Assembly (NCBI GenBank): GCA_049517415.1
Contig: JBEKSC010000014.1
Coordinates: 1-64,000 of the forward strand
Direction of reading: 5' to 3'
Origin: Candidatus Bathyarchaeia archaeon
GTDB taxonomy: Archaea > Thermoproteota > Bathyarchaeia > 40CM-2-53-6
DNA: 64,000 nt
The notes beneath the pieces are model-generated. The model searched no databases. It had not been told where the DNA came from and saw only the letters and a program-made list of their open reading frames with translations. The translations under genes and the position numbers were made by a program. Shown here one piece after another: positions 1 to 58,739 of this stretch (position 1 is its first letter; each line of letters begins with the position of its first letter).

Positions 1-577
1 GCTTAGAGACAGAATGTTGGCTGAGATTAAGGAGCTTCATAGGCGACTGGGTTTCACAGCGCTCTACGTTACGCATGACCAAGAGCAGGCTATGCGGCTA
101 GCTGACCGAATCATGGTGATGAACCAGGGCTCCATAGAACAGATAGGGACGCCTGAAGAAGTATATCTCAACCCCTCAACACTCTTCGTAGCAAGATTCC
201 TGGGGGGATTGAATATGTTAGATGGAGAGGTGGCTTCGTTGAAAGATGACCTGCTCATGGTGAAAACGGGTGCGGGCGATCTTGCAGTGAACGACAGGCG
301 CAAAATTGGAGCCAAGGTGAAAAGGGTGATATACTGCATTAGGCCGGAGAAGGTATCAATCGGCGAGCAAGCCCGGAAGTTGGACAATACGGTTGAAGGT
401 AAGCTCGTAGACCAGACTTACAAAGGCTCTAGCATCGAGCATGTGGTCCATCTCAAGAACGGAGTAGCGTTCAGATCTGTTTCCGAAGGGCGGGATCTGG
501 TTGATTTGGGATCCTATATCGACCGTGATGTAGTCATAGGATGGAAATCAAACGATTCTCTAGTTTTCCCGGCCTAG
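1..577 (+). CDS. ABC transporter ATP-binding protein, PotA/MalK type (5' end outside the window)
   Basis: H-loop YVTHDQEQA, GTPEEVYxxP, FVARFLG and IRPE motifs plus a C-terminal TOBE-like region; Walker A/B lie upstream of the window. Confidence 0.9.
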
Positions 578-603
578 ACGAACTTTGCCAAGCTGGGTCC
601 AGC

Positions 604-2337
604 ATGATCAGGCAAGGGAGCTCGCCTGATGCCACCGGTGTAAAGAGGATAGGAGAAAAAGCAACGGTAAGGGAGATCTATGAGATCTCAGAAGTCACGT
701 GTAACCTTATCAGAGATTCCTTTGGACCCGCGGGGCTTTGGAATATCGTCGTGGACGAAACAGGGTACGTACACCGACTGAGAACTGGGTCGGCCATCCT
801 CAACAGAATAGCTCCCAAGAAGGACATACTTAAGGAGCCTAAGCAAAGCGAATCAGGGCAGCTTGCGGTGCATCCGGTCACCGAGATTATGAGTGAAATG
901 GCTGGAGCTGTCACAAGGAGTGTTGGCGACGGTTCTAAGGCTGCGATAATTCTGACCGCGGAGATCCTTGGGAAGAGTTTCAAATCGATCATTGACCCCG
1001 CTATATTCCTGGCTGGGTGCTTGCATGCACGGGATAAATCAATTGAACTAGTACGAAAATCGAGCATGCCTCTTTTGGTGACCCGATCTGGCATACGTAA
1101 GATTGTCAAGACTTTCTTTGATACCGAGTTCATGCCTGAAGAATCAGTCATATTGACTGACATCATTGTCGCGGCAGTTGCAGGGAAGCTCCAGAAAAGC
1201 GACAATGGAACATATTTGTTGGACAGCGATGCGATCTGCATCAAACGGGAAATCGGTGGCAGTATTCTAGACACGCGAGTTTTTGATGGTGTAGCGTTCT
1301 TTAGCGATATACCAAACCCTAGCATGCCTAAGATCGTTGAAAACGCAAAGGTTGCACTCCTGTCTGGAGCCTTAACCTCCGGATTTGACAGAACCGATGC
1401 GAAGTTGAGAACGAGACAATATGATCACGAGGTCATCATTGATGAGCCGGACGATATGAGGGCACTTTATCACGAGAAGACAGCCGCCTGCACCTATATC
1501 CTACGCACGTTACGAAATCTAGAGGTAGGCGCCGTTGTGGTCGGAAAAGGCCTAGAGCCGGAGATAGAGGGAATGCTCGCGAAAGAGGGAATTCTTGCCG
1601 TAAGAAACGTCTACGTCGAAGATCTTCAGAGAATCGCGAGGTTGACTGGGGGTAGGATCGTTTCAGATGCAGCGCTTTTGACGCCTGGAGATTTGGGGAC
1701 GGCACAATTCATCAAAGAAGAGAAGATGGGAGGGCACTCATGGATCTTCATTGGAGGTCAACAGGCTGGGAGAGTGTCAACGGTGCTAGTTCGAGGTTAT
1801 TCCGATGCGATCATCGACGATGCTGAGAGCAAGATACGTGATTCTTTAAGGGTTATTGGGAATTTTGTTTCGCACCCCAGAATCGTTCTCGGCGGAGGGG
1901 CTACCGAAGTTGAACTGGCAGCATATTTGAGAAGAGATGCTGACACGATTGGCGACCGTCAGCAGGTTGTGATTGGACATCTTGCTGAGGCTCTTGAGAG
2001 TATTCCGGCGATTCTAGCTGCCTCGTGTGGTTTGGACCCGATAGACTCGGTAGCCAACCTCAGGATGCTGCACGTGCGAGGAAAACCATCTATGGGCATT
2101 GACGTGTACGAGAGAGAACTGGCGGACATGCATGAAGCTGGCATCTACATACCTCTACCGGTATACGAACAAATCATAAACTCTAGTTTCGAGACGGCGG
2201 CGTGTCTCTTGAGAATCGACGACATTGTTGCCTCTAGAGTACGCCACGGAGGCGAGTATTGGAAGAAACGGATGCAGCAGTTCACGGAACCTCGGAGAGA
2301 GAAACAAATAATCAAAGACTATGGAATGGGACGATAG
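604..2337 (+). CDS. Divergent group II chaperonin (thermosome-like, Cpn60/TCP-1 family)
   Basis: SFGPAG, VGDGSKA (canonical GDGTTT), MPKIVENAKVALL, GGGATEVELA and LLRIDDIV align with the thermosome at 13579; ATG at 604 chosen because the upstream gene ends at 577. Confidence 0.85.
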   Translation: MIRQGSSPDATGVKRIGEKATVREIYEISEVTCNLIRDSFGPAGLWNIVVDETGYVHRLRTGSAILNRIAPKKDILKEPKQSESGQLAVHPVTEIMSEMAGAVTRSVGDGSKAAIILTAEILGKSFKSIIDPAIFLAGCLHARDKSIELVRKSSMPLLVTRSGIRKIVKTFFDTEFMPEESVILTDIIVAAVAGKLQKSDNGTYLLDSDAICIKREIGGSILDTRVFDGVAFFSDIPNPSMPKIVENAKVALLSGALTSGFDRTDAKLRTRQYDHEVIIDEPDDMRALYHEKTAACTYILRTLRNLEVGAVVVGKGLEPEIEGMLAKEGILAVRNVYVEDLQRIARLTGGRIVSDAALLTPGDLGTAQFIKEEKMGGHSWIFIGGQQAGRVSTVLVRGYSDAIIDDAESKIRDSLRVIGNFVSHPRIVLGGGATEVELAAYLRRDADTIGDRQQVVIGHLAEALESIPAILAASCGLDPIDSVANLRMLHVRGKPSMGIDVYERELADMHEAGIYIPLPVYEQIINSSFETAACLLRIDDIVASRVRHGGEYWKKRMQQFTEPRREKQIIKDYGMGR

Positions 2338-2441
2338 CTTTGCAGCATGCCCTACGCCTAAATCCGGACGGTATTACCTCGGGAATTGATCGAGCCCGTG
2401 AGTCACAGTAAGACCTGTGTGCCTTTTGGAAGGGAAGTAGT

Positions 2442-4109
2442 TTGTCACTGAAAAGGCGTAGCACAAAAGAGCTTCAGAAATTGAATATCGAGGCAGGCGC
2501 AGCCATGGGAGAACTAGTAAGAAACTCATTCGGGCCCTGTGGCATGAGTAAAATGATAAGCGATGACAAGGGGCAGACAACGCTCACGGGTGATGGCGCA
2601 GCAATAGTGAGAGCGTTACAAGTTCGCGGCGGGTGGTATCGTGGGCCAAGTCGGAACGGCGATCGCAAGCACGGGGAAATTGAACCAACCATCAATAACC
2701 CGATCTGCAAAATCATGGCGCAAGCGGCCGCAGCCTTGGATGTCGAGCTGGGCGATGGAATCAAATCTATGCTTATTCTCGCGGGAGCTCTCCTCGCGAA
2801 TGCAGAACATCTGCTAGATGACGGCCTGGCTTCTGATCTGATCGTCTCCGGATACAAGAAGGCATACGACAAGGCCGTACAAATCCTCACCGGGACATCG
2901 CTTGTCATAGCACATCAAGATGCGAGTGTTCTTAGAAATCTCGCAATGACTTCCATTCGTAGCAAAGATGTGGGGGCAGGTAGAGAACACCTCCTCGATA
3001 TCTCCATGGCCGCCTCAAACATGATCTTGGATGACTACCCATGGGGCTCTGATATCGACATGAACGAAGTGCTGGAGAATGTGAAGTTTGTCAAAAGAAG
3101 CGGAAAAAGCGTAGCCGATACGGAAATGATCAAGGGCCTCATTGTTGAGAAAGCTGTCGTCAATAGTGGTATGCCCGAAAGAGTTGACAACGCCAGATTA
3201 CTTGTTCTAGAGTCACCGCTCGAGTTAGACAGGAAAGCGTTTCACGTGAGGATCGAGGGTAGACAAGGGTCCCTGAAAGCGTTTCAGGATCAAGAAGATC
3301 GGTTGAGGGATTCGTGGGTCAGGAAAGTGGCAGAATGCGCAGCAAATGTTGTCGTGTGTCAGAGAGGGATAGACGTGAAGACGCAAAGCAGTCTCGCGAA
3401 GAACGGCGTGTTGGGAGTCCACTGGGTCAATAGACGGGATGTGGAAGGGATTGCCAAGGCGACTGGAGCCAAAGTCATGACAAGCATAAGTGATGTAGGT
3501 CCGGAAGATCTCGGCGCCGCAGAGATAGTGGAAGAGAGAACGGTCGGGACAGACAAAATGGTTCTCATAAATGGTTGTAAACAGCCGAAGTGTGTGAGTA
3601 TAATGATTAGAGCGGGGCTGGATAAAGAAGCGGATGAGGCTGAAAGGGCCCTCAGCGATGCAATATGCAGTTTAGCGTCTGTTCGCTCATGCGATAGGAT
3701 TGTAGGAGGTGCAGGCGCTGTCGAAATGGAGGTGGCGAAGAAACTGAGATCATACGCCGTGAAAGTCAGCAGCAAAGAACAACATGCGATAGGGGCATTC
3801 GTAGACTCTCTCGAAACGATTCCCGAGAACTTGGCAAGGAACGCTGGCCTCGATGTAACTGACGTGAAGCTGGCTCTAAGATTAGCTCATGAAAAGGAGG
3901 AGGGATCGTGGCTGGGCATAAACGTCCTATCGCGCAAGATAGAAAACACCCTGACTTGTGGCATAATCGAACCGTACAGCGTCAAGAAACAAGTTCTTCG
4001 AACTGCTGTAGAAGTTGCATCAACCATCATAAGGACAGCCAACATAATATCGTTTCATCCCAATGAAGAAACGGCACCTTCAGCACCTACAGGTGACAGG
4101 GGAGCGTAA
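2442..4109 (+). CDS. Divergent group II chaperonin (thermosome-like, Cpn60/TCP-1 family)
   Basis: SFGPCGMSKM, TGDGAAI, LGDGIKS, EAERALSDA, GGAGAVEME, LARNAGLD, IIEPYSVK. Confidence 0.88.
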   Translation: MSLKRRSTKELQKLNIEAGAAMGELVRNSFGPCGMSKMISDDKGQTTLTGDGAAIVRALQVRGGWYRGPSRNGDRKHGEIEPTINNPICKIMAQAAAALDVELGDGIKSMLILAGALLANAEHLLDDGLASDLIVSGYKKAYDKAVQILTGTSLVIAHQDASVLRNLAMTSIRSKDVGAGREHLLDISMAASNMILDDYPWGSDIDMNEVLENVKFVKRSGKSVADTEMIKGLIVEKAVVNSGMPERVDNARLLVLESPLELDRKAFHVRIEGRQGSLKAFQDQEDRLRDSWVRKVAECAANVVVCQRGIDVKTQSSLAKNGVLGVHWVNRRDVEGIAKATGAKVMTSISDVGPEDLGAAEIVEERTVGTDKMVLINGCKQPKCVSIMIRAGLDKEADEAERALSDAICSLASVRSCDRIVGGAGAVEMEVAKKLRSYAVKVSSKEQHAIGAFVDSLETIPENLARNAGLDVTDVKLALRLAHEKEEGSWLGINVLSRKIENTLTCGIIEPYSVKKQVLRTAVEVASTIIRTANIISFHPNEETAPSAPTGDRGA

Positions 4110-4318
4110 GAGTCGTTCGAGGGCTATTGGAACGTACATATTAAGGAAAGGGGCTTGCCAGCTAATTCGAGGGTACGATCATATCTCATAGCATTGATGG
4201 CACTCATCTATTGGAATGAATAGTCGTACAGGAAAATTCAGTCGACAAACTCGGATTTTTCCGGGAACGGGATACCTACGGCATGACAGACTTGCGGATG
4301 GGAATAGCGATTGGATTC

Positions 4319-5698
4319 TTACGCAAATACTCTTGATTCTATAGACAAATAGTTTGAAACCTCGACCAGTTCGTCGGCCCACTCTCCGTAGACTGCGTGC
4401 ATATGATTTGACCCCACGTTTTTCAACAAATCTTCGGGATCCGACTTTAGCCTCACGAATCCTTGGGGCCAACCTAGTACGGCATTCTTCATTTCCTCAT
4501 TAGGTTGTCTTACAAACTCTGCCGGGGCTATCTGCATGATGTACTTTCCTTGGATCCTTGACAGTCTGGCTAAGGTTATGTCGCCTGGGCTGCATTGGAA
4601 CTGTAGCGACGCCCCTCCCGCGTCGAAAATTTGGGGATAAAGATTTACGAGCTTCAAGTTTTCAGAGGCATCGTCGGACTTGCTTGCGAACCAAGTGGAT
4701 TGCGAGCCACAGTTCATGAAAGTAAGAAGCTTATCAGATTGCGAGAAGTGCCTCAGGTCGAAGAATGCTACGGGCTTACCAGTCAGCAAATAGAGGATCT
4801 CCATGGTCAGTGCGGCGTCTATATCTGCCTCGCACGCTGTTGGAATGATGTGCTTCTCGCCGTCCCAATCATATGGGTCGTTCATAAAGGCCTGGGTAAG
4901 GCATTGAGTGCAATATCCTCCACTAAGTTCTGGGTGACACTTGACGGCTAGAAAATCAAGCCCTTTTTCTCTAACAATTTCCTTCGTGGCTATATAGCTC
5001 GCTATTTGTTTCCTTAGCTTCTCGTCGGTTAGCTTGTTTTGGTCGAAATTTATTTTCGAAACGCTTTCTTGGAGCCATTCATAGGCTTTCTCGATTCCAT
5101 CTTTGGGCACCTTTTCGGCTCTGTTCACGATTTCTAGCTGGTCAATATGTTCGATGTCAACACCGAATATCGAGTGGATTTGGCTGGCGTCGCTCGTTGC
5201 AGTGTACAATCCCATCGGACGACCACCGAACAAGCCCAGAACTCTACCTTTCAATTTGTTTGCTGCGTAAACGGCCCTCGCATGATTCACTATTTTGCTT
5301 AGCGTAGATTTGTCGCCTATTGCCCCCCATATTCTTGCATTCTTGATGCCCAGCTGGTCTAACGCCGCGGCGCCAGCTAGCATTGCAATTAGACCAGCAT
5401 GGGCAGAATCGAGGGTGGAGAATAGAAGGATGGGTATCTTTGCCGTGCTAGCGACTTCAACAATTAGGTTTGGAAAGGTCCACTCCGGAATGAAAAACAG
5501 CAAGCAGTCAATGCCTTGGCAAACCAACTGCTTTGTTTCTTCTATGGCCATCTTAACCGTATGTATTGTGTTCTTGACACGAATCACCTGCAAGTCAGGA
5601 GTGTTGCTTATCCAGTCCGTGAACTCCTGGAATGAGTTTTCCACGTAGGGGTCAGGCAGAGCCCCTGGCGACGACGTCAGAAGGCCGATTCTGATCAA
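4319..5698 (-). CDS. L-fucose/L-arabinose isomerase family protein
   Basis: GGRPMGLYT, AVKCHPEL, ACEADIDAALTM, NCGSQS and SNHMHAVYG motifs of the FucI/AraA superfamily. Confidence 0.8.
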   Translation of the reverse strand: MIRIGLLTSSPGALPDPYVENSFQEFTDWISNTPDLQVIRVKNTIHTVKMAIEETKQLVCQGIDCLLFFIPEWTFPNLIVEVASTAKIPILLFSTLDSAHAGLIAMLAGAAALDQLGIKNARIWGAIGDKSTLSKIVNHARAVYAANKLKGRVLGLFGGRPMGLYTATSDASQIHSIFGVDIEHIDQLEIVNRAEKVPKDGIEKAYEWLQESVSKINFDQNKLTDEKLRKQIASYIATKEIVREKGLDFLAVKCHPELSGGYCTQCLTQAFMNDPYDWDGEKHIIPTACEADIDAALTMEILYLLTGKPVAFFDLRHFSQSDKLLTFMNCGSQSTWFASKSDDASENLKLVNLYPQIFDAGGASLQFQCSPGDITLARLSRIQGKYIMQIAPAEFVRQPNEEMKNAVLGWPQGFVRLKSDPEDLLKNVGSNHMHAVYGEWADELVEVSNYLSIESRVFA

Positions 5699-5726
5699 GT
5701 AAAGGAGTCGCCGTCACGCGTTTTCG

Positions 5727-6239
5727 TTAGCCTCTGTTTTCTTTCACCCAGCCTGCGTCATACGGTGTTTGATAGAAGTGTGTAACCTTGACTTCTTTGA
5801 TTTTCCATTCTCCCGCTTTCTTGACAAAATTCTCGTCATAAGTACCTACGATCCAGCCCGCCCGGTTCTCCGCAGCGAATGTCATAGGCTCTTCATAGTA
5901 CCACCGTCCTCTTGCCTGATTCCCGTTCACCTCGATGAGGTCATTATGGACCATGTGAACGAAGAATGTAGCTGCTTTGGGAACGTCGACCGTAAAGAAT
6001 TGTTTAACGCCCTGTTTTCCTTTGTATATGCCAGTTCCTCCTGCAAAAACGCCCCAATCGGTATATGCGTCGTCAGTAAAACAATTGAGGACCGTATCCC
6101 AATCTCTCTTGTCAAGAGCAAAGGTATATTTCGCTTTCAACTTCTTGATTGCTTCAATATCTTCCAGCTGTTGTACTTTCCTTTCCAAACTAAGAAGTTT
6201 CTTTTCGAGATCTTTTGAAGGCACGTTTGTTTCCCTCAT
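5727..6239 (-). CDS. SnoaL-like / NTF2-fold protein (SnoaL_4, LinA/BaiE-like)
   Basis: LEDIEAIKKLKAKYxxALD, CFTDDA, HMVHN, ARGRWY, GTYDENF..GEWKI. Confidence 0.8.
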   Translation of the reverse strand: MRETNVPSKDLEKKLLSLERKVQQLEDIEAIKKLKAKYTFALDKRDWDTVLNCFTDDAYTDWGVFAGGTGIYKGKQGVKQFFTVDVPKAATFFVHMVHNDLIEVNGNQARGRWYYEEPMTFAAENRAGWIVGTYDENFVKKAGEWKIKEVKVTHFYQTPYDAGWVKENRG

Positions 6240-6401
6240 TCTCCGTCGTCTGTTAGTATTGCAAGGGGTCGCCGCGGCGAAACTTAAAGCCTTTCATCGG
6301 GCAGACCGATCTCGAAGCATGAAATTATATGCAATGCACTCGATGTATTTACTCTATGTAAATTAGCTTTTTTTATATTGATGCCCCAAACATCGCGAAT
6401 C

Positions 6402-7439
6402 ATGAATACGATGAAAGCCGTTGTCCTCCGTGATGTCAAGAATTATAGTATTGAAACGGTGAATGCGCCTCAGATAGGTGCCAATGAAGTTCTTATCAGG
6501 AGTAAGAATTGCGGGATATGCGGTACCGATGTCTCGATGTATCTCGGAAAATACCTTCCAACAAAGCCCGTAATTCCCGGCCATGAGGTTTCCGGCGAAG
6601 TTGTTGAGGTTGGTCAACAAGTAAGGACGATCAGAGTAGGTGATCGGGTCACTATTGATGAAAACGTGTCGTGTGGAACATGCTACTTCTGTAAGCATCA
6701 GCAAAAACTATTGTGCCCCGATTTGTATCAGATAGGTATTCACTCCGACGGAGGTTTTGCAGAATATTTCAAAGCACCCGAGGGCAATATCTTCAAACTA
6801 CCGGACGATATGAGCTATGATTATGCTCCGTTTATCGAGCCGTTGGCATGCGTGACGAGAGCTGTCGATAGAGCAGGAATAGTCACTGGTGACCGAGTTG
6901 TTGTAATTGGAGACGGGCCCATCGGGCTTTCATGTATGCAAGTCGCCAAGATTGACGGAGCTTCGAAGGTAATCGGTGTGGGTCTAATAGACTACAGGCT
7001 GAAGAAGGCGTTAGAGATAGGGGCGGATTTGGTGATAGATAGCTCGAAAGGTGATCCAGTTAAGGCTGTTAGGGAGGCTACGAACAATATTGGTCCAGAT
7101 GTGGTAATTGAAGCCGTTGGTAGCTCAGCTACCTATCTACAAGCACTAGAAATGGTCAGGAGGGGGGGTAAAGTTGCGGTGATGGGTGTCCCGCCGGCAA
7201 CATCCAAGATGGAAATTGAACTGTTTAGCCAGATATTTAACAAAGAACTCACTTTACATGCTTCGTTTGCTGGAACGTACGATACTTGGATAAGGGCAAT
7301 GTCCCTCATTTCATCGGGGCGATTCAAGGTTGGACCATTAATCACCCACAGAATGTCATTGTACGAAGTGCCTGAAGGAGTAAGAATGATGATGGATTTC
7401 AAAAACGGCGCAATCAAGATTCTGGTTTCACCTAAATAG
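6402..7439 (+). CDS. Zinc-dependent medium-chain dehydrogenase (sorbitol/threonine dehydrogenase-like)
   Basis: CGICGTD, GHE, structural Zn CxxCxxC...C, GDGPIG Rossmann motif; TATA-like TTTTATAT at 6371 supports a start near 6402. Confidence 0.9.
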   Translation: MNTMKAVVLRDVKNYSIETVNAPQIGANEVLIRSKNCGICGTDVSMYLGKYLPTKPVIPGHEVSGEVVEVGQQVRTIRVGDRVTIDENVSCGTCYFCKHQQKLLCPDLYQIGIHSDGGFAEYFKAPEGNIFKLPDDMSYDYAPFIEPLACVTRAVDRAGIVTGDRVVVIGDGPIGLSCMQVAKIDGASKVIGVGLIDYRLKKALEIGADLVIDSSKGDPVKAVREATNNIGPDVVIEAVGSSATYLQALEMVRRGGKVAVMGVPPATSKMEIELFSQIFNKELTLHASFAGTYDTWIRAMSLISSGRFKVGPLITHRMSLYEVPEGVRMMMDFKNGAIKILVSPK

Positions 7440-7631
7440 TTGCGCATCCTGACGGAATAATTCACAGCAGTTTCACAGCCTATAATTCTAATTACGCCTA
7501 TCAACAAGATATTCTGTCTTAACCAGTCGAAGATTCGAAGAGTTTTTGGAATCCAAGAATGAATTTGCGTTTATTCAGCATTGAGGAAGTGGAAGCTTAG
7601 TTAAGGAACGCGGAGCTGGTAGGGTTCAAAG

Positions 7632-8324
7632 ATGAAACGTGAAAGTGGAACTATGTCGGAAAATGTGTTAGCCAGAATGGAGAGGGCAGGGGTAATTCCA
7701 GTCGTCGTAATCGATGATCCTGGCAAAGCAGTTCAATTGAGCCAAGCCATCCTAGAAGCCGGACTCGACCTGATTGAGATAACGATGCGCACTGAGATGG
7801 CGATGGAAGCTCTAAGAAAAGTGAGCAAGGAACTGCCTCACATGGTGGTTGGGGCCGGCACAGTATTCTCGGTATCCGTTGCGAAGGAAGCTCTATCTAA
7901 GGGAGCTCGCTTCATTGTCTCACCTCACGTGGATGAGAAGATTGTCACTTATTGCGCGCGAAAGAACATCGTTTGCATCCCAGGCGCGTTCACACCATCA
8001 GAGGTTCAACGCGCAATAGGCGCCGCGAAGAGAGGGATGCCGCGAAAAAGCAACAAGGGCCTTCCGTTGGCGATCAAAATCTTCCCCGCTTCAACCGGGG
8101 GTCCGGCTCACGTAACAGCAATGAGAGCAGTATTTCCAGACGTAAGATTTGTGCCGCTCGGAGGAGTCAACGCAAGCAACTTGGCGGAATACATCAAAGG
8201 CGGAGCATGGGCTGTGGGAGGTACATGGCTCTGCAAGAAGGACCTTATCGAATCGGGCAATTTTGCCAAGGTATCGGAGTTGGTCAAGGAAGCATTAGCC
8301 ATCATAGCGACGGCTAGGAAGTAA
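7632..8324 (+). CDS. eda: KDPG/KHG aldolase (bacterial Eda type)
   Basis: IEITMRT, VGAGTV, GARFIVSP, PGAFTPSEV, KIFPA (Schiff-base Lys), VPLGGV; start may be 7653. Confidence 0.85.
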   Translation: MKRESGTMSENVLARMERAGVIPVVVIDDPGKAVQLSQAILEAGLDLIEITMRTEMAMEALRKVSKELPHMVVGAGTVFSVSVAKEALSKGARFIVSPHVDEKIVTYCARKNIVCIPGAFTPSEVQRAIGAAKRGMPRKSNKGLPLAIKIFPASTGGPAHVTAMRAVFPDVRFVPLGGVNASNLAEYIKGGAWAVGGTWLCKKDLIESGNFAKVSELVKEALAIIATARK

Positions 8325-8530
8325 CATATGAACCGAGCGGCTGCATGACAGAAACGAATCTGTTCATGACATTGAACATGCTACTGTCACGACCAAGGGT
8401 CAGCGATGAGCACTACCATGTCCGATCGACTGCATTGCGGGCATCTGGGAACAATGTAGCTCATATTCACGATCACGTCAACATCGCCCCTAAGAATTTC
8501 GCCGAACGCTAAGGACTATTAAGACATATG

Positions 8531-8558
8531 TGATGGGGCCTGTGGGACATGAACCCAC
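8531..8558 (-). pseudogene. tRNA 3'-end remnant (T-arm plus 3' acceptor strand)
   Basis: Minus strand reads GTGGG-TTCATGT-CCCAC-AGGCCCC-A-TCA: 5-bp T stem, 7-nt T-loop variant, 7-nt acceptor strand, discriminator; no D or anticodon arm upstream. Confidence 0.5.
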
Positions 8559-8738
8559 TGCGCGGTGGGTTCAGGATGCGTCATGGATGTAGGTCAACTG
8601 CTAACGATGCCACTCCCTCGCAAGCAACGCCATCCACCCTACATGAATCTCTTTGACCATGTGGAACGGAGACGATATAGAAATATGACGGCCTTCGTGA
8701 TCCGCTGTTACGAGGAAAACGCCACGAAGGCTCCAGCC

Positions 8739-9092
8739 AGCATCATGTGGGAGGAAACCTTCGGCCTAGTAATACCGATCACCCATGTGAAGGGTGTCGA
8801 TGAGGCTAGAGAGCTGGCCAACAAGTCACGATACGGTCTCGATTCTTGCCTCTTCACTAATCACATCAATTTGGGTAGGAAAGTTGCGAAACGTCTCGAA
8901 GAAGCCGAGGTAACCATTAATGAGGCACCGCGACATGGAGTGGGCTACTATCCTTTCGGAGGCAACAAAGATTCAGGTATGGGTAGGGAAGGAATCGGAT
9001 ACAGCATCGAAGAAATGACTAGGTTCAAAACCATCGTATACAACCGGAAGCCAGCCAAGGTTTGGGCGGACCTGTTCAAAGAGCGAACTTAG
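8739..9092 (+). pseudogene. C-terminal fragment of an aldehyde dehydrogenase (GAPN-like)
   Basis: WEETFG, ANKSRYGL, INEAPRHG, YPFGGNKDSGMGREG; the N-terminal NAD(P)-binding and catalytic-Cys regions are missing. Confidence 0.8.
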
Positions 9093-9162
9093 TCTCGCAC
9101 ATGCTCGGTTGTTTCATCAGGGCACTTACTCTTGACAGAACCTTAGGCAGAGTGAGCATGGT

Positions 9163-9588
9163 ATGCTTGGTATGTTTCGTAAGCTATGGAAAATGTTTGG
9201 GCCACAGGCATTGAAGTTCTGTGTAGTTGGTGGGCTTGGTGTGATACTAGCTTCTGGGGTGTTGTACGGGCTAACTGAGTACTGTCATGTTTGGTATTTG
9301 TACTCGAACTGGATTGCGGTAGTGGTGGCCCAGATTTTCTCCTTTCTTGGTTACAAGTATTGGGCCTTTACGATTGCGAAGGGTCAAGCTGCTTATCCGA
9401 CCAGTAAGCAGTTTCTGATTCATTGGTTTGTCTGGGGAGTTGGTCTAGGGATTTCGACGCTTGTGATCTACTCCTTGACTACGTATGGGCATGTTTGGTA
9501 CATGCTGTCCAGTTGGGTTGCTACGGCTGTTTCTGGTGCGAGTAATTTTCTCTCTCATCGGTACTGGACGTATTCTCCGAAGGATTAA
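9163..9588 (+). CDS. GtrA family membrane protein
   Basis: 141 aa, four hydrophobic segments, LKFCVVG, SFLGYKYWAF and NFLSHRYWTY patterns. Confidence 0.8.
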   Translation: MLGMFRKLWKMFGPQALKFCVVGGLGVILASGVLYGLTEYCHVWYLYSNWIAVVVAQIFSFLGYKYWAFTIAKGQAAYPTSKQFLIHWFVWGVGLGISTLVIYSLTTYGHVWYMLSSWVATAVSGASNFLSHRYWTYSPKD

Positions 9589-9732
9589 CTAGGAATGCAA
9601 TGTCCGTTGAGAGCGAACTTGCGGGGATAAGTCAAAGGAACCGGCAAGTGCTTAACGCTAATCCAAAATGCTAACGCGAAGAAAGCAAACTCTTAATCAC
9701 CCTCTCCAGCGTCTCGTATTGCGGTTTGGCGT

Positions 9733-10086
9733 GTGAAGTCCGCAATTTTTGTTTCAATACTCGTCGGTGCCGCTCTCATACTTGTTGTACTTGCCTCACC
9801 TTGGTATCCGGTGGCAACAAGCCAAGTAGTACCTCAAATCCTGAGTTATACGACTCAATTCGAAGTGACAACTGGAAGTGTTGAAGTAAAAGAGACCCTG
9901 ACTGCGTACAGCACGAGAAGTGTAACGCTTTATTCGATAACTACGGTTCCTTTCCACAAAATCCTTGGAGTCGTAACTTCCGACGCGATTCTGGTTCTGC
10001 TAGCGTTAGTCCTTGTGCTCTCGACCCTCCTTGATCAAGGAATAATCACCGTGCCCGCAAGGGGTCGCAAGAGTGGGAAGCAGTAG
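9733..10086 (+). CDS. Hypothetical membrane protein (probable passenger of IS unit A)
   Basis: Two hydrophobic helices flanking a Thr/Ser-rich segment; ends 50 bp before an IS6-like right end. Confidence 0.5.
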   Translation: MKSAIFVSILVGAALILVVLASPWYPVATSQVVPQILSYTTQFEVTTGSVEVKETLTAYSTRSVTLYSITTVPFHKILGVVTSDAILVLLALVLVLSTLLDQGIITVPARGRKSGKQ

Positions 10087-10136
10087 CTTTCAAAGGTGTC
10101 AGTAAAGCCCTGGCGCGATTTGAAGCACGCTTTCCC

Positions 10137-10160
10137 GTGTCCCTAGGGTGTAACAGCACC
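10137..10160 (+). repeat. Orphan IS6-family right terminal inverted repeat (unit A)
   Basis: GTGTCCCTAGGGTGTAACAGCACC, 22/24 identical to the end at 11271-11294 and followed by the same CCTGCCTG. Confidence 0.8.
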
Positions 10161-10180
10161 CCTGCCTGGGTTGTGTTAGA

Positions 10181-10423
10181 GGTCAAGTTCACAATAACAA
10201 GATGGAACGCATGAACGGTGAGTTACGGGACAGGTAGAAGGTTGTTAGAGGCGTGAAGCGTGAAGATAACCCTTTGCTGACAGGACTTCAAATCTACCAC
10301 AACTACGTTCGACCACACATGGGCTTAGATGGCAAAACGCCTGCGGAAGTTGCAGGCATCAAAATTAACGGCGATGATAAGTGGCTAACCTTAATCCAAG
10401 CGGCAAGCAAGAAAAACGCCTAG
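10181..10423 (+). pseudogene. Transposase C-terminal fragment with an in-frame stop
   Basis: Translates GQVHNNKMERMNGELRDR*KVVRGVK...YHNYVRPHMGLDGKTPAEVAGI...KWLTLIQAAS, closely matching the C-terminus of 12349-13506; TAG at 10235-10237. Confidence 0.9.
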
Positions 10424-10425
10424 GC

Positions 10426-11217
10426 ATGGTAACCGTACTTCAACGCGCTAGGAAAGTTATTCGAGAGAACGGATATTCCGCCCTATCTTGGAAAATTCTC
10501 TGGAAGCTACCTATTCTACGCTCTCTAGTGCTTTGGCGATTCGCAGTCGCCACTAGAGACATAGGTGCCTTGGAAGATGCAATAGAGTTTGCTTTCTCAG
10601 GGCGATTCGGTGGGCTCATTCGACCTCTTCAAATCCGCAGTGAAATTCACAGCCTCTGCGAAATCGTTGCTGAACATGAACCGAACACAGTCCTTGAAAT
10701 TGGGACGGAGCGTTGCGGTACGCTTTTTCTGTTCAGCCGATTAGCAGCACCTAACGCATTGCTCATCAGTATTGATTTACCGAGAGAAGATTTGAAACCT
10801 TGGAGATCGCTCTGTGAACATCTTGGGAGGCGGGACCAAAAGATTTCTCTCATAGATGGTGATTCCCACGATAACGCTACAGTAGAAAAGCTCCATCAAG
10901 TTCTGGGAGACCGAAAGGTTGACTTTCTGTTCATTGACGGAGACCATTCCTATGACGGTGTGAAGGAGGATTTTGCGACCTATTTCCTATTCATGGAGAA
11001 ACACGGCATAGTGGCCTTCCATGACATTAACCCTGATTACTGGATGAGGTTTGGACAACGGACAGGTCCATGTGGAGGAGAGGTCTACCGGTTCTGGGAT
11101 GAGATAAAGAATCGATTCAAACATGTTGAGTTCATAGACGATTCTGCCCAAGACGGTTATGGCATTGGTATTCTATGGGGTTGTCACAGTGCGCCGAAAA
11201 ACGACGACCAAACGTAG
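10426..11217 (+). CDS. Class I SAM-dependent methyltransferase (Methyltransf_24 type)
   Basis: VLEIGT, LISIDL, IDGDSH, DFLFIDGDHSYDGVKEDF, GIVAFHDI; ATG two nucleotides after the stop of the transposase fragment. Confidence 0.85.
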   Translation: MVTVLQRARKVIRENGYSALSWKILWKLPILRSLVLWRFAVATRDIGALEDAIEFAFSGRFGGLIRPLQIRSEIHSLCEIVAEHEPNTVLEIGTERCGTLFLFSRLAAPNALLISIDLPREDLKPWRSLCEHLGRRDQKISLIDGDSHDNATVEKLHQVLGDRKVDFLFIDGDHSYDGVKEDFATYFLFMEKHGIVAFHDINPDYWMRFGQRTGPCGGEVYRFWDEIKNRFKHVEFIDDSAQDGYGIGILWGCHSAPKNDDQT

Positions 11218-11409
11218 ACATTACGTTACCATCTAAACGCTCATGTCCCGATTTGTAACACCGTTTTCACATGTCCCTAGGGTGTAACAGAACCCCTGCC
11301 TGAAGGCTTTGTTGCGTTCTTGGGACACAACCAAGGGCGTTGCAAAGCGGGACATGGCAGGCGTCATACTGGAGGCATGTTAAATGCCCAAAGAGAGTGA
11401 GGGTGAACT

Positions 11410-12129
11410 ATGCACATCCCCAAGTTAGTGCAAGCGATTGCTACGACAATCAGCTCTGTCATAGACCTTCTTGTGCTCTTGGACCTCTTGGGCTTTATTC
11501 AAACGCCTATCTTTCACGGGGCTGAAATTGTAACGACAAACTCTCAATACTTCATACTCTTGGCTCTAGTAATCTTCGGTTTGCTCACATTTTGGCTTGG
11601 CTATCAGTTTAGTACATGGCGAAATAGAGACTTCATTAACAAAGAAAAGGAGAACTTGACAAAGCCAAACGCCGGTCAATTACAAGTTGCAGAAGTACGG
11701 TTTCCTTATGGGTTGAAAACAGGGAGTACAAGCGCCACGATTTCAGTAACCGATAAACCGCCAATTGAGATAGATGATTTCAGAAACGGTGTTGCAACTG
11801 AGGTGCGTTCCATTTTGACGCTGTTCTCAGACCCCTTACAGCATTGGAACATCACGTATCCGATTTGGTCTAGCAAGGCCGACGCATCAAGGGCAGCACT
11901 ACTCGGCATACAGGATTATTTTGTATTGAGACTCTTATATGACGCAATAGAGGGTCGAAACAGGTACTTCGCTGGGAGGCTCGGTATGGATGTTGAAGAA
12001 CTAGAGCCTCTAAACCTGACCTGCGTTAAGGCGTTTTCGCGGGCGTACAGCGAAGTTTCTTGGCTCAAAACCGAATCCTACATTGATTCTCTGCTCGCGA
12101 AAGCTAGGAAAGCTGTAGGTTTGCGCTAG
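11410..12129 (+). CDS. Hypothetical protein with two N-terminal TM helices (passenger of unit C)
   Basis: 239-aa ORF inside the TIRs; two hydrophobic segments followed by a soluble domain; no recognised motif. Confidence 0.65.
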   Translation: MHIPKLVQAIATTISSVIDLLVLLDLLGFIQTPIFHGAEIVTTNSQYFILLALVIFGLLTFWLGYQFSTWRNRDFINKEKENLTKPNAGQLQVAEVRFPYGLKTGSTSATISVTDKPPIEIDDFRNGVATEVRSILTLFSDPLQHWNITYPIWSSKADASRAALLGIQDYFVLRLLYDAIEGRNRYFAGRLGMDVEELEPLNLTCVKAFSRAYSEVSWLKTESYIDSLLAKARKAVGLR

Positions 12130-12263
12130 GTGTCTTTCGTTTTGAAGTATTCTCCTAGTACGGCTCTTACTGCTTCGGGTATAGATTCCAGTTTTCGTGC
12201 CTTACGTTCTTGTTCTAGGGCTTTCACCATTTCGTCTGACATGGCTACCATTATTTTGTTCAT
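12126..12263 (-). CDS. Small ribbon-helix-helix (CopG-like) DNA-binding protein, absent from the ORF track
   Basis: Hand translation MNKIMVAMSDEMVKALEQERKARKLESIPEAVRAVLGEYFKTKDT (45 aa): alternating beta strand, helix, S-x-x-E-x-V-R helix; divergent from the transposase. Confidence 0.7.
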   Translation of the reverse strand: MNKIMVAMSDEMVKALEQERKARKLESIPEAVRAVLGEYFKTKDT

Positions 12264-12348
12264 TGCCAAGGTTGATTCGCTACCATTGTATAGCGATAGC
12301 AACCCTTATAGCTTTTGGCTGTGTATAGCGATGTGTAGCGATTGGTAT

Positions 12349-13506
12349 ATGGCAACTGTGATAGTAACCCGCGAGGAACGGGGAAGAATGATTGCCGAAC
12401 AAGCAAACCAAGTCCAAAGGCTAGATGAACGAAACTACAAGGTCAATTCTCAGAGCCGTGAAATTAGCTATGATGTTGTACGTAGCGATAAGTTCGCTAT
12501 GCGTTGGGTTTGCACTTGCCCCGACTGGCAGTTTCGCCAAGTCAAATGCAAGCACATTTGGGCGGTTGAGTTCTCCGAAGCGTTGAGGAACAAGGTTAAG
12601 CAGAATGTCGTGATTGAGCCATTAAGCCCAAGCGTATGCCCCTACTGCGCTTCAAATCAGCTAGTTCGACACGGGTTAAGACATAACAAGTATGGCGATC
12701 TTCAAAGATTCACATGCCGAAGTTGCCGAAAACGGTTCTCTCAGAACTTAGGCTTCGAGGGGATGAAAGCTAACCCTCAGTCTATCACTTCGGCTATGCA
12801 ACTTTACTTCACGGGCGAGAGCCTAAGAAACGTACAGAAGTTTCTACGGTTGCAAGGAGTCGAAGTTCATTACACGACTGTTTATCGTTGGATTCAGAAA
12901 TATGTCGAAATCATGGGACACTACTTAGAACAAATGCAACCACAGGTAGGAAACACTTGGCGAGCCGATGAACTATTCCTGAAAGTGCACGGCGATATGA
13001 AGTACCTGTATGCGCTCATGGACGATGAAACCCGCTTCTGGATTGCCAAAGAAGTCTCAGACACTAAGTACCATGCTGATGTTCAAGACCTATTCAAACA
13101 AGGCCGAAAAATTGCTGGCAAGGCACCATTCCACATAATCACTGATGGAGCAAGGAACTTTCATGCGGGAATTGAGAGCGAGTTTTGGAGAGAGAAGAAA
13201 CAACTTGCGCTAGTGCATGAGCGTGATATACGCTTTGGTGGGGAAATTCACAACAATAAGATGGAACGGATGAACGGAGAAATTAGGGACAGGGAAAAGG
13301 TTGTTAGAGGCGTAAAGAAACCCGATAGCCCTCTAATCGAAGGCTATCAAATCTATCACAACTACGTACGACCACACATGGCACTTGACGGTCAAACCCC
13401 AACCGATAGAGCGGGTATCGAAATTCAAGGTGGTGACAAGTGGCTGACCCTAATCCAAGCGGCAAGCCGTGTCCCGAAAAGCAACGAGAAAAGGCGTGTC
13501 CCATGA
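12349..13506 (+). CDS. IS6-type DDE transposase with N-terminal SWIM zinc finger and Zn ribbon
   Basis: CTCPD..CKHIWAV (SWIM), CPYC..CRSC, HTH SLRNVQKFL..TTVYRW, WRADE, ITDG, NNKMER; ATG at 12349. Confidence 0.9.
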   Translation: MATVIVTREERGRMIAEQANQVQRLDERNYKVNSQSREISYDVVRSDKFAMRWVCTCPDWQFRQVKCKHIWAVEFSEALRNKVKQNVVIEPLSPSVCPYCASNQLVRHGLRHNKYGDLQRFTCRSCRKRFSQNLGFEGMKANPQSITSAMQLYFTGESLRNVQKFLRLQGVEVHYTTVYRWIQKYVEIMGHYLEQMQPQVGNTWRADELFLKVHGDMKYLYALMDDETRFWIAKEVSDTKYHADVQDLFKQGRKIAGKAPFHIITDGARNFHAGIESEFWREKKQLALVHERDIRFGGEIHNNKMERMNGEIRDREKVVRGVKKPDSPLIEGYQIYHNYVRPHMALDGQTPTDRAGIEIQGGDKWLTLIQAASRVPKSNEKRRVP

Positions 13507-13522
13507 ACGCAACAGAACCTGC

Positions 13523-13537: not shown

Positions 13538-13578
13538 GGGGGGATTTTTACCTGCAGTAACAAAATCGGTGTAGTGTG

Positions 13579-15243
13579 ATGTCGGAACAAAGTGTACCTG
13601 TCATAATATTGAAGGAAGGAACTCAACGAACTCAAGGTAGAGACGCGCAACGAAACAATATCCTTGCAGCCAAGGTCGTTGCTCAAACGGTCAGGACAAC
13701 CCTGGGGCCACGCGGAATGGACAAGATGCTCGTCAGCGGGATGGGAGACGTTGTCATCACAAATGACGGCGCCACGATCATGAAAGAACTCGATATCCAG
13801 CACCCCGCGGCGAAGATGCTTGTCGAAGTTGCAAAAACACAAGATAACGAGGTAGGTGATGGAACCACAACGGCAGTACTCCTAACTGGCGAATTACTCG
13901 ACAAGGCCGAGAAACTCTTAGACAGAGAAGTGCACCCCACTATGATTGTTGAAGGCTACAAGAAGGCGGCGGAACAGGCGAAGGATATTCTTGAGGCGAT
14001 CTGTGAGAAGATCAACACGGAGGATGCGGAAACTCTCACGAGGATTGCAATGACGGCGATGAGCACCAAGGGGGTAACGGGTGCGAAGGACCATCTAGCA
14101 AAGATAGCAGTCGAGGCAGCACTTCAAATCAAGGAAACGAGGGACGGCAAGACGAAGGTTGACGTTGACCTCGTCAAGGTATTGAAGAAACATGGTAAGA
14201 GCTTGGAAGAAACGGAGCTCGTTCGCGGCATAGTGATCGACAAGGAAGTTGCTCATCCCCAAATGCCCAAGCGCACCGAAAACGCCAAGATTGCCCTACT
14301 CAACGCGAAGCTCGAAATCGAGAAAACCGAGTTCGACGCGAAGATCAACATCGACAGTCCGAATCAAATGAAACTCTTCCTGGATGAAGAGGAACGTATG
14401 CTCAAGGAAATGGTTGATGATGTCGTAAAGAGCGGCGCTAACTTCGTATTCTGCGAAAAATCCATCGACGATATGGTGCTTCACTTTCTCTCAAAGAAGG
14501 GGATTGCAGCAGTGAAGAACGTGAGCAGCGGTGATATGGAGAAACTCTCCAAGGCGACGGGCGCCAAAATCGTAGCGAACCTCAAGGACCTAGGGAAGGA
14601 ATCCCTTGGTGAAGCCAAGGTGATCGAGGAGGCCAAGATCGGCGATGACAAACTAACCTACATAAGGGATGCTAAGAATCCGATGGCTGTGACGATTGTT
14701 ATTCGAGGAGGAACTGAGCATGTTGTGGACGAGGCTGAACGTTCCCTCCACGACGCTCTATGCGTAATTCGGGACGCGATCGAGGATGGGAAGATAGTGG
14801 CTGGCGGAGGCGCGGCTGAAGCCGAGACCGCCAAGCAACTACGCGGCTACGCAGTCAAGGTCGGTGGCCGTGAGCAATTGGCCATAGAGGCGTTCGCAGA
14901 TGCCGTCGAAAGCGTACCCCTAGCCCTCGCTGAGAACGCTGGCCTAGACCCAATCGACATTATGGTAGCTTTGCGCGCCAAGCATGAGAGCCCTGAGAAC
15001 CGCTGGTACGGCGTCGACGTCTTCTCCGGCGAAGTTAGAGACACACGCAGCTTAAACGTGATCGAGCCGCTGCGCGTGAAACTGCAAGTTATCAAGTCCG
15101 CTACTGAAGCAGCATCAATGATTCTGCGCATCGATGATGTCGTGGCCTCCAAGGGAGGCGGGGGAGGTGGACCACCCATGCCCCCAGGCGGCGGAATGCC
15201 CGGCGGCATGCCTGGTGGAATGCCTGGCGGAGACGAGTACTAA
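13579..15243 (+). CDS. ths: Thermosome subunit (canonical group II chaperonin)
   Basis: [33 protein letters not shown]-terminal GGMP repeats. Confidence 0.97.
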
Positions 15244-42515: not shown

Positions 42516-43220
42516 TTGAGAATCTGCGTAATCTCCCCTAACACCTCCAAAGAATTCTTGCGCGAACAGGAAGAGGGACTAAAGGAACTGAAGTACGTGA
42601 GTGTCCGAGGCATTACAAAGGGCCCAGAGTCAGTGGAATGCTTCTATGACGATTCACTTGCCGCTCCGCCTATCATTGACGTAGCTCAAGGTGCTGAGCG
42701 CGATGGATTCGATGGAATCGTCATTAGCTGTTTCTTCGATCCGGGTCTCAACTCTGTACGTGAAGTTGTCTCAATTCCCGTAGCCTCCGCGGGTGAGGCT
42801 AGTCTACACCTAGCTTGTTCGCTTGGTCACAAGATTGGTGTGGTGACAACTGTTGAAAACTCAATTCCGGTTATCGAACATCTAGTGCGGGCGCTAGGGC
42901 TCGATTCACGGGTGGTAACCGTAAGGGCAGCGTCTCTTGGCGTACTTGAACTTGACAGTGGAGAGCTGACTGTCGGCGCTTTACTCAGGGAGAGCTTAAG
43001 CGCGATCAAGGAATCAAAGGCTGATGTCATTGTTTTGGGATGCACTGGGATGACAAAAGTTGCCTTACTCCTCCAGGACAGAATTCGGGAAGCAGGCTTT
43101 GATGTTCCTGTAGTTGACCCATTGAGAGCAGCTTTGCATTGGGCCGAGACTCTTGTGGACATGAAGTTGCGACACAGTCGCTTGGGGTATCGGAAGCCTC
43201 CTCCAAAGACACGTACGTGA
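42516..43220 (+). CDS. Asp/Glu/hydantoin racemase family protein
   Basis: ISPNT, GPESVE, ISCFFDPG and LGCTGM catalytic cysteines. Confidence 0.9.
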   Translation: MRICVISPNTSKEFLREQEEGLKELKYVSVRGITKGPESVECFYDDSLAAPPIIDVAQGAERDGFDGIVISCFFDPGLNSVREVVSIPVASAGEASLHLACSLGHKIGVVTTVENSIPVIEHLVRALGLDSRVVTVRAASLGVLELDSGELTVGALLRESLSAIKESKADVIVLGCTGMTKVALLLQDRIREAGFDVPVVDPLRAALHWAETLVDMKLRHSRLGYRKPPPKTRT

Positions 43221-43457
43221 ATTCCAAGTCGAGTGGAGAACTGGAACCTCGTTACGTACCTAATATCTGAGTTCAAAACTTCGCGGGTGGTTCGAATTTT
43301 GAGCAGTGAAGGTGATCGCAACTCGCGCACCTTGCGATCAGTTGTGTACAATTCGCGCAGGATGTGAACGCAGCTCCTGGGCGCTTCTACCCAGCATCGA
43401 GAACTTGCCCAAAATCATATAACGTAACTGGCAAGTCCCTATGGCGAGGCCGTACAC

Positions 43458-57909: not shown

Positions 57910-58701
57910 TCATTTCTTGAACGTAGTTCCTCTTGAAAGTGCCCAACCAAATAGTAGCAGCGCAACAATGGAGATCATCGATATGATTGTACCTGCAGCG
58001 TACCATTTCGGACTCAAGGCACGGACTCCCACCTCTGAGAGAATGTAGGTTGAAAGCACGCCCGTGCCATGTATAACAAACTGGGTTCGGATTACTTCAC
58101 CCCATGCCAGGACGAAGCCGAACAGCCCAGCTGAGACGACTTCCCAGACAATCAAGGGTAATGTTACATGCCTAATGACATTCCATGGGCTTGCTTTCAG
58201 AGTGCTTGCGGCCCTCTCGTACTCCATCAGTCTAGGCTCGAATCTAGCCATCATGAGCACCAAGCCGAAGGGAACAGCATAAATCACGTCCACGATTACG
58301 GGCGTCCAGAACGTAAACCCCCAGCCAACAAACCGGAAGAGAAAGACCATTCCCAGCCCCAGTGCGACCCCCGGTACGACGAAGCCCAATAGAATCACGT
58401 AGAAGACAAGGTCTCTTCCCTTGACTCTATGGCGGAGAGCCAAAGCCGTCGTCGTGGCTATGAAACAAGTGAGCAAGGCGGCAGCAATGGACACGTAAGC
58501 TGAACTTCGGAATGCGCGCCAAAAATCTGTATCATGAAAGACCGAAATCCATTCGGACCCATATCGGTACGAGCTGGGTTGACCAATATACCAATCTAAT
58601 GTGAATCCTCGTATCGGAAAGCTCATGTCGCTCCCCGACTTGAACGAGAGCAACACCATGAAGAGTAGGGGTAGATAGATGAATAAAACCACTAACGCCA
58701 T
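57910..58701 (-). CDS. ABC transporter permease, PotC type
   Basis: FIYLPL...LLSF, GFTLDWY, EAA-like ERAASTLKASPW, VTLPL; start may lie up to ~40 nt upstream. Confidence 0.9.
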   Translation of the reverse strand: MALVVLFIYLPLLFMVLLSFKSGSDMSFPIRGFTLDWYIGQPSSYRYGSEWISVFHDTDFWRAFRSSAYVSIAAALLTCFIATTTALALRHRVKGRDLVFYVILLGFVVPGVALGLGMVFLFRFVGWGFTFWTPVIVDVIYAVPFGLVLMMARFEPRLMEYERAASTLKASPWNVIRHVTLPLIVWEVVSAGLFGFVLAWGEVIRTQFVIHGTGVLSTYILSEVGVRALSPKWYAAGTIISMISIVALLLFGWALSRGTTFKK

Positions 58702-58739
58702 GAAGACTTTCGATAGGGTAGCCTTAAGTTTCGTAGGTA

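Follow-up and report, generated by a model that had tools for sequence, protein, structure and literature searches.

Why would an archaeon keep two divergent chaperonin genes in tandem, directly behind the genes of an ATP-binding cassette (ABC) importer? The question is raised by the start of a 64,000-nucleotide stretch of a Candidatus Bathyarchaeia archaeon (assembly GCA_049517415.1, contig JBEKSC010000014.1, positions 1 to 64,000), which is the whole DNA analysed and is here called the window. Two genes, chapA (541..2337, + strand) and chapB (2442..4109, + strand), follow the 3′ part of an importer ATPase gene (2..577, + strand). From sequence we infer that a chaperonin-like family, represented by ChapA, and a lineage-specific partner, ChapB, are tied to this importer, and infer their function likewise. 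We propose, at a probability of about 0.4, that the pair is likely co-transcribed with a PotABCD-like importer and forms a specialised chaperonin-like assembly that serves it, perhaps by folding its binding protein, which bears a twin-arginine translocation (Tat) signal.

The two proteins are group II chaperonin homologues. A sequence-only reading of the stretch had described two full-length thermosome homologues in tandem about 9.5 kb from a canonical thermosome gene, and the profiles agree. Against Pfam PF00118 (cut-off 34.3 bits) ChapA scores 331.9 bits (profile positions 3-488 of 490) and ChapB 408.2, both with near-full coverage; 9.47 kb separate the end of chapB from the start of the canonical gene (13576..15243, + strand; PF00118 618 bits), which is a reference and lies outside the proposed system. 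Against the NCBIfam thermosome models NF041083 (thermosome beta, cut-off 400), NF041082 (alpha, 450) and TIGR02339 (671.1), ChapA falls below all three cut-offs (327.7, 326.6 and 317.9 bits), ChapB passes the first (454.9) and is under the other two (448.4 and 443.3), and the canonical neighbour passes all three (789.5, 780.4 and 768.3). ChapA and ChapB are 25% identical to each other and 30% and 38% identical, respectively, to the canonical protein. A search of the ESM Atlas returned only generic TCP-1/CCT clusters.

AlphaFold2 (AF2) models of the two proteins reach a mean predicted local distance difference test score (pLDDT) of 83.7 for ChapA and 81.9 for ChapB, with a predicted template modelling (TM) score of 0.79 for both. 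The best Foldseek match of the ChapA model is 1q2v_A, a Thermococcus KS-1 chaperonin (E 1.8e-44, TM-score 0.79 by query and 0.91 by target, root-mean-square deviation 2.8 Å). All three domains of the fold are retained, among them the apical domain with a lid region, and the secondary-structure elements of the ChapB model come in the same order as those of ChapA. The lid region of ChapA has a clade-specific insertion (pLDDT <50 at residues 286-295), and in the ChapB lid region helices 264-271 and 278-298 are modelled. Low pLDDT is confined to the N-terminus, the inserts, the tip of the ChapA lid, and the stem loop (32-46) and tail of ChapB.

Both proteins carry an insert at the same site before the HP/NP motif, and the inserts are unrelated in sequence, as had been noticed earlier. 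Alignments place that of ChapA at K93-A109 (17 aa; 817..867, + strand), between the stem-loop helix and the helix leading to the P-loop, and that of ChapB at R62-I84 (23 aa; 2625..2693, + strand). The ChapA insert (pLDDT <50 at residues 95-99 and 101-108) also occurs in the orthologues at 86-88% identity; P0006 has a shorter version and P0243 a longer one. The ChapB insert (pLDDT <50 at 60-84) is retained in P0125 and P0126 and missing from canonical sequences. ChapA also has, behind the helix that comes after the P-loop, a deletion of 3 residues that is specific to its clade. Neither protein has the GGM tail, and ChapA instead ends in a charged extension of about 33 aa (approximately residues 566-598; 2236..2337, + strand), both of which the sequence-only reading had seen. 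The extension has predicted helices at 571-581 and 584-593 (pLDDT ~70).

The residues that matter for ATP hydrolysis are described in the available part of a study of the group III chaperonin Ch-CPN (PMC5635000). There, the Asp and Thr residues of the P-loop GDGTTT bind Mg and the beta and gamma phosphates, and a stem-loop Asn-Asp (the Asp being the Asp56 equivalent) and an intermediate-domain Asp (Asp373 in Ch-CPN, Asp386 in Mm-cpn) take part in hydrolysis. A sensing-loop Lys touches the gamma phosphate; the group III enzyme has Arg, whose change to Glu or Leu cripples activity. In the alignments the canonical GDGTTT is GDGSKA in ChapA and GDGIKS in ChapB, as first reported, and each form is conserved in orthologues. 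GDGxK P-loops are frequent among divergent representatives (34 of the 150 best library representatives), so GDGxK alone is not an unusual trait. The canonical stem loop TNDGAT reads LRTGSA in ChapA, with Arg for Asn and Thr for Asp, which confirms the missing TNDG aspartate; in ChapB it reads TGDGAA, a Gly-Asp with the Asp kept. The sensing-loop Lys is replaced by Glu in ChapA and by Ala, Ile or Arg in the ChapA orthologues, and is retained in ChapB. The intermediate-domain Asp is retained in both (IRDSL in ChapA, LSDAI in ChapB). Since the stem-loop Asp and the sensing-loop Lys are missing, ChapA would be unable to hydrolyse ATP efficiently. The ATPase impairment once suspected of the pair is thus predicted for ChapA alone; in ChapB the two catalytic Asp residues and the sensing-loop Lys are in place, and it would be the active partner at this locus.

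ChapA belongs to a deep clade for which we propose the name CT family. A profile of the ChapA clade, searched against 1.84 billion representatives, gave 4368 matches at E <= 0.001, and a ChapA-like tail occurs in 18 of the 150 best matches. This tail has an aromatic-basic stretch and a Pro, and in most cases [KR][DE]YG[ILV] close to the end; ChapA has it, ending in K-D-Y-G, and ChapB does not. The clade comprises ChapA, the tailed sequences and the C21 paralogue family (about 75 clusters, 36-92% identity). Twelve CT rows separate from 17 others with an SH-aLRT support of 100, with or without the tail columns, and a 71-row tree is consistent with this. Both proteins fall among archaeal group II sequences. 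ChapB lies outside the CT clade, on a long branch (1.25-1.32) among canonical subunits, whose position among the canonical clades differs between two trees; its best BLAST partner in its own genome is the C11a paralogue, at 43%. By its placement ChapB is not a CT-family member. Constraining ChapA and ChapB together costs 96.9 log-likelihood units and is rejected by the approximately unbiased (AU) test (p-AU 0.00013; 29 rows, LG+G4), as it is with the tail columns removed (p-AU 1.2e-8). On these trees, therefore, neither is a duplicate of the other, and their lineages of origin differ.

The residues given up differ between CT subclades in an alignment of family members. The C21 clade has Gly at the position of the intermediate-domain Asp and the G033 protein has Cys, and in G158:C1 and G142:C24 the P-loop is GGGGAT and the intermediate-domain Asp is absent. 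P0256 and P0246, near-basal members, have nearly canonical motifs. This pattern suggests that hydrolysis by the CT subunit is dispensable. The family is apparently undescribed so far: literature searches, which did not cover most subscription journals, found no paper on the tail family or on a chaperonin-importer link.

The importer itself lies mostly upstream of the window. The open reading frame (ORF) at 2..577 is the C-terminal part of an ABC ATPase, with a TOBE domain (Pfam TOBE_2), which agrees with the transporter gene named in the sequence-only reading. The rest, namely the genes for the binding protein and two permeases and the beginning of the ATPase gene, is found on contig C13 and on the metagenome locus L023, whose base 5560 corresponds to the window start. 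The full-length ATPase gene (L023:5030-6136) encodes ABC_tran and TOBE_2 domains, and its top NCBIfam match is PotA (351.9 bits, under the cut-off of 482). The binding protein at the head of the operon (518 aa) has no Pfam match and is weakly PotD-like. The transporter is of the PotA/PotD-like and not of the sugar type.

The evidence that ties the CT family to this importer is its distribution. Profile matches of at least 665 bits mark 11 loci in 8 of 401 class genomes (G000, which is the window's genome, G033, G037, G080, G142, G158, G161 and G180). The next 22 hits all score at most 649 bits, and the 21 that are readable are all canonical, having a GDGTT[ST] P-loop and lacking the tail motif. 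At E <= 1e-25 the binding-protein family is likewise found in 8 of the 401 genomes, the same eight, from 6 genera. Nine of the 11 loci have context that can be used, and at 7 of these nine there are importer genes no more than 3.5 kb from the CT gene. In the window the CT gene is on the same strand, directly downstream of the importer ATPase; at G158:C31, G158:C1 and G142:C24 it is convergent with the binding-protein gene, 20-480 nt apart; in G080 and G033 it is convergent, 16-37 nt past the second permease gene; and in G180 the importer genes are 3.3 kb away. The CT subclades at these linked loci are only 27-40% identical. Since, in the genomes searched, the ChapA family is present only where the importer is carried, the pair likely serves the transport system and not general folding. 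The original suggestion that the pair serves its neighbours thus holds as far as the tie itself goes, through co-occurrence and adjacency. The partner, however, appears to be the upstream importer and not the downstream catabolic genes; the FucI-like, SnoaL, alcohol dehydrogenase (ADH) and aldolase genes there are conserved only among four close contigs.

Tat substrates fold before export, and the binding protein is a candidate for such a substrate. All nine binding-protein homologues with a complete N-terminus have a twin-arginine motif (S/T-R-R-x-[FY]-[ILV]), a hydrophobic stretch and a Thr/Pro-rich linker; the motif of the operon's own binding protein is T-R-R-Q-A-L. The Tat signal model TIGR01409 (cut-off 16.7) scores two of seven scanned proteins over the cut-off (18.3 and 17.0), and the G033 binding protein at 13.6. 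TatC is present in G000 and in all five other carriers tested.

The genes are maintained. The same DNA is found on metagenome contig L023 (141,867 bases), and the related contigs L024-L026 encode ChapB proteins that are 84-85% identical. In L023-L026 the order is binding protein, two permeases, ATPase, chapA, chapB, then FucI-like and SnoaL-like genes on the opposite strand, then ADH. Against the L024/L025 orthologues the ratio of non-synonymous to synonymous substitution (dN/dS) is 0.346-0.350 for ChapA and 0.295-0.333 for ChapB, compared with 0.12-0.21 for the binding protein, the permeases, the FucI-like protein, SnoaL and ADH, and 0.26-0.28 for the ATPase. Both genes are under purifying selection, about twofold weaker than that on their neighbours; they are real and specialised, as the sequence-only reading had supposed. 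Their reading frames are intact in four contigs, and the stretch is present in 20 DNA runs (peat, wetland or soil). Motifs, inserts and tail recur in orthologues at 84-88% and at 53-77% identity, so chance is no explanation. ChapA features are kept in P0006 (53%, an intact relative) and P0243 (49%), and ChapB features are shared by only two other clusters, at 85% and 77% (P0126) identity.

We propose that ChapA and ChapB would form a specialised chaperonin-like assembly, predicted from their sequences, that folds or holds the ~50 kDa binding protein with its twin-arginine signal in the cytoplasm ahead of Tat export. A dedicated cytoplasmic chaperonin for this protein would account for the linkage. 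In a mixed ring, hydrolysis would be supplied by ChapB, which keeps both Asp residues and the Lys, while ChapA would be hydrolysis-poor. The same-site inserts and the 3-residue deletion in ChapA would fall where the equatorial domain faces the other ring, and may alter stacking; in the available part of the group III structure paper, ring-ring contacts are made by the end of the second helix, after the P-loop (PMC5635000). A wider claim would be that CT proteins make up a new class of archaeal chaperonins dedicated to a client, in which every copy acts in the cytoplasm as a folding and proofreading cage for one protein, the Tat-exported binding protein of the importer that it goes with, and with ChapA and ChapB the most derived case, a two-gene ring of one ATPase-dead and one live subunit and an archaeal parallel to the BBS-type and CCT division of labour. 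In this full form we hold it to be somewhat unlikely.

A number of observations weigh against the proposal. The co-occurrence scans scored three candidates per genome, the 400 genomes are a sample of the class and the eight carriers are partly kin. The stretch seen at G000:C21 and at G037:C41 has no importer genes, and the CT gene there stands among genes for racemase, S-Me-THD and M29-like proteins; each of the two genomes has the importer at another place. The CT gene runs in the same direction as the importer at the chapA locus alone and five other loci are convergent, so co-transcription is not general; moreover, CT genes adjoin the transporter cluster as a whole and not the binding-protein gene specifically. 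A mirror-tree comparison of binding proteins with CT proteins, by pairwise identity over the seven linked loci, gave no clear mirroring (Spearman 0.27, p = 0.24); the Pearson value of 0.84 is driven by one close pair, and 52 of 5040 permutations reach the observed value in an exact Mantel test. The operon's own binding protein scores 16.5 with TIGR01409, just under the cut-off. No RNA run is listed with the stretch, against 20 DNA runs. Placement of the inserts at the ring-ring end comes from helix-hairpin geometry and the group III contact residues.

These points leave room for other explanations. The pair, and with it the CT family at large, could be a dedicated chaperonin for the cytoplasmic enzymes of a nitrogen-heterocycle or peptide catabolic module to which the importer merely also belongs; candidates are the S-Me-THD-like protein, the Asp/Glu/hydantoin racemase and the M29-like peptidase, and here the FucI-like protein, ADH and aldolase. 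CT genes of the C21 clade do lie directly among racemase, S-Me-THD and M29-like genes at G000:C21, G180:C180 (L148) and G037:C41 (L151), S-Me-THD is within 3 kb at G158:C1 and G142:C24, and extra racemase and M29-like copies occur in the window at 42-60 kb. We nevertheless regard this account as unlikely. S-Me-THD (PF06032) is present in 10 of 41 relatives, 7 of them without the CT family, and absent from G033, which has the family; because of this distribution S-Me-THD is not the specific CT partner. The chapA, G033 and G080 loci have no racemase, S-Me-THD or M29-like gene beside the chaperonin-like gene, and the sugar-type genes downstream of chapB are conserved only among four near-identical contigs. 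Folding might also have been abandoned altogether, in favour of a ring or scaffold independent of ATP hydrolysis; this would regulate, anchor or gate either the importer or the importer ATPase, and nucleotide binding would serve as a switch only. The loss of separate catalytic residues in separate CT subclades, which suggests that hydrolysis is dispensable, and the conserved charged tail in place of the GGM tail would fit such a scaffold. The retention of the full three-domain fold with apical domain and lid region, the nearly canonical near-basal members P0256 and P0246, and the catalytic set retained by ChapB would not, and literature searches found no precedent; we consider it quite improbable.

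Still less probable in our judgement is that the two are extra fast-evolving subunits which join the general thermosome under some condition, so that adjacency to the importer is meaningless. The genome does have nine PF00118 genes in a genus that keeps five canonical paralogue clades, ChapB is over the NCBIfam thermosome-beta cut-off (454.9 against 400), and the island that carries the pair is accessory and beside IS elements; yet among the 401 genomes searched the CT and binding-protein families overlap in 8 of 8 carriers and are adjacent at 7 of 9 loci, ChapA is under the cut-off of every one of the three thermosome models, and 22 other species of the genus yielded neither gene. That the genes are decaying duplicates under relaxed selection, the alternative that the sequence-only reading had set beside its own, is hardly credible. 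A dN/dS about twice that of most neighbours and the eroded ATP motifs point that way, but values of 0.30-0.35 are far under 1 and contradict relaxed decay, frames are intact in four contigs and the stretch recurs in 20 DNA runs. Motifs, inserts and tail are conserved down to 53% (ChapA) and 77% (ChapB) identity, and both fold models are confident. We retain a specialised assembly in the service of the importer as our preferred reading of the pair.

The pair sits on an accessory island, judged by comparison with the nearest relative, G014, whose match to the window, at 92% DNA identity, starts only at base 13511. Window bases 1-13,500 are unmatched there except for short stretches (77% at 8735-9073; pieces of the transposon stack at ~10.2-13.5 kb), and IS6-type transposase genes bound the region. 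No ChapA orthologue was found in 40 relatives, 22 of them of the same genus (best identity 36%), and no ChapB orthologue in the relatives including the 22 other species of the genus (best identity 45%). ChapA had zero matches at E <= 1e-88 in the 400 other class genomes. In a contig scan with a generic alignment, which included a canonical row and P0144, the best 80 loci were all at most 37% identical.

Within the island, chapA encodes 598 aa from the ATG at 541, which overlaps the ATPase gene by 37 nt. The alternative ATG at 604 lies 26 nt past that gene and corresponds to Met22 of the longer form, in a model region (residues 1-33) with pLDDT <50. chapB encodes 555 aa from a TTG start 104 nt past chapA. 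Downstream of it, at 4319-8324, are genes for a FucI-like isomerase, a SnoaL-like protein, a Zn-ADH and a KDPG/KHG aldolase, which suggest a deoxy-sugar-type pathway; the isomerase matches a sulfoquinovose-isomerase model only weakly (88 bits; cut-off 700). The ORF at 8565-9092 matches only positions 361-461, the last 100, of the 461-position aldehyde dehydrogenase profile and probably represents a truncated gene; the transposon stack at 9.7-13.5 kb lies next to it.

Parts of the importer neighbourhood recur elsewhere. The window holds further module copies, namely racemase genes at 42516-43226 and 59679-60362 (- strand), an M29-like gene at 43923-44465, a binding-protein paralogue at 51169-52605, permeases at 57931-59351 (- strand) and an ABC ATPase at 62702-63745. 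Beyond the window, at G000:C14:64623-68696 (L143), lie a permease, a binding-protein paralogue and S-Me-THD. No chaperonin-like gene stands beside any of these copies. At G033:C5 (L153) and G080:C92 (L186) the cluster order is binding protein, permease, permease and converging CT gene; in G033 no ABC ATPase gene occurs within the 17 kb seen, and the G080 contig ends there.

The nine PF00118 genes of G000 comprise six canonical and three divergent ones. The canonical copies are on C20, C8, C48 and C11 (two) and at window 13576-15243. Four complete or near-complete genomes of the same genus each have five canonical thermosome paralogue clades, and the sixth canonical copy here (C48) could be a recent duplicate or contamination (bin contamination 6.86%). 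The third divergent paralogue, P0150 (G000:C21:45214-46953; L127, L152), has 580 aa, the P-loop GDGCVS and Gly for the second catalytic Asp. A virus-borne chaperonin was rejected, as no relative of P0150 was found on viral contigs, and a defence-system identity was dropped because PADLOC defence models gave zero matches for ChapA, ChapB, P0150 and the binding protein. Two natural fusions of two group II chaperonin modules, P0244 (1057 aa) and P0247 (1047 aa), score highly with the chapA profile; both modules of each have a GDGxK P-loop. They were rejected as a clue to pairing: their N halves cluster together and their C halves cluster together, and the halves group with neither ChapA nor ChapB.

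Archaeal thermosomes are treated as general folding machines whose subunits, one to five in number, are interchangeable. In the genomes searched, the CT family is a distinct conserved branch that has given up catalytic residues repeatedly and is strictly inherited with one unusual importer. If the proposal is true, client-dedicated chaperonin-like proteins arose in archaea independently of eukaryotes, and the locus would offer a simple prokaryotic model of a chaperonin subunit turned assembly factor. It would also link chaperonins to Tat-dependent export or transporter biogenesis, a link for which literature searches found no report. A working analogy is provided by TorD, DmsD and NarJ, cytoplasmic Tat chaperones that are encoded beside their substrate and block export until it has folded. 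These are small all-helical proteins and not a 60 kDa chaperonin fold, and no homology is claimed.

ChapA and ChapB share their Pfam family and three-domain fold with the archaeal thermosome alpha and beta subunits (1Q2V, 1A6D, 3KFB), and keep the GDG core and the intermediate-domain Asp as well as the GGGA.E motif, which reads GAGAVE in ChapB. Both differ in their changed P-loops, their inserts, the absence of a GGM tail and their place on an accessory island tied to an importer; ChapA differs further in lacking the stem-loop Asn-Asp and the sensing Lys and in its charged, conserved tail. The available part of a 2019 review gives the number of thermosome subunit genes in an archaeal genome as 1-5, and five for M. 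acetivorans alone, whose subunits 4 and 5 are a precedent for divergent extra group II subunits in one archaeon (PMC6420498). The present lineage, with 5-6 canonical paralogues and three divergent ones (nine PF00118 genes in G000), is above that published maximum of five, and that part of the review describes neither a transporter link nor the tail family (PMC6420498). The group III Ch-CPN of Carboxydothermus is thermosome-like with a changed nucleotide-sensing region; by the available text it keeps GDGTTT and both catalytic Asp residues and is bacterial, whereas ChapA and ChapB are archaeal group II proteins (PMC5635000).

The likeness to BBS and CCT divergence drawn in the sequence-only reading fits, because the wider family of ChapA has repeatedly lost catalytic residues. 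BBS6, BBS10 and BBS12 act with CCT in BBSome assembly. As described in the available part of the source, BBS6/MKKS, BBS10 and BBS12 are group II paralogues that have diverged, with ATP motifs worn down and insertions of their own, and are taken to serve a single assembly task instead of general folding (PMC2846930). The CT family looks much the same. They are eukaryotic CCT offshoots, whereas ChapA and ChapB are archaeal and their proposed client is a transporter component; the comparison is one of analogy only.

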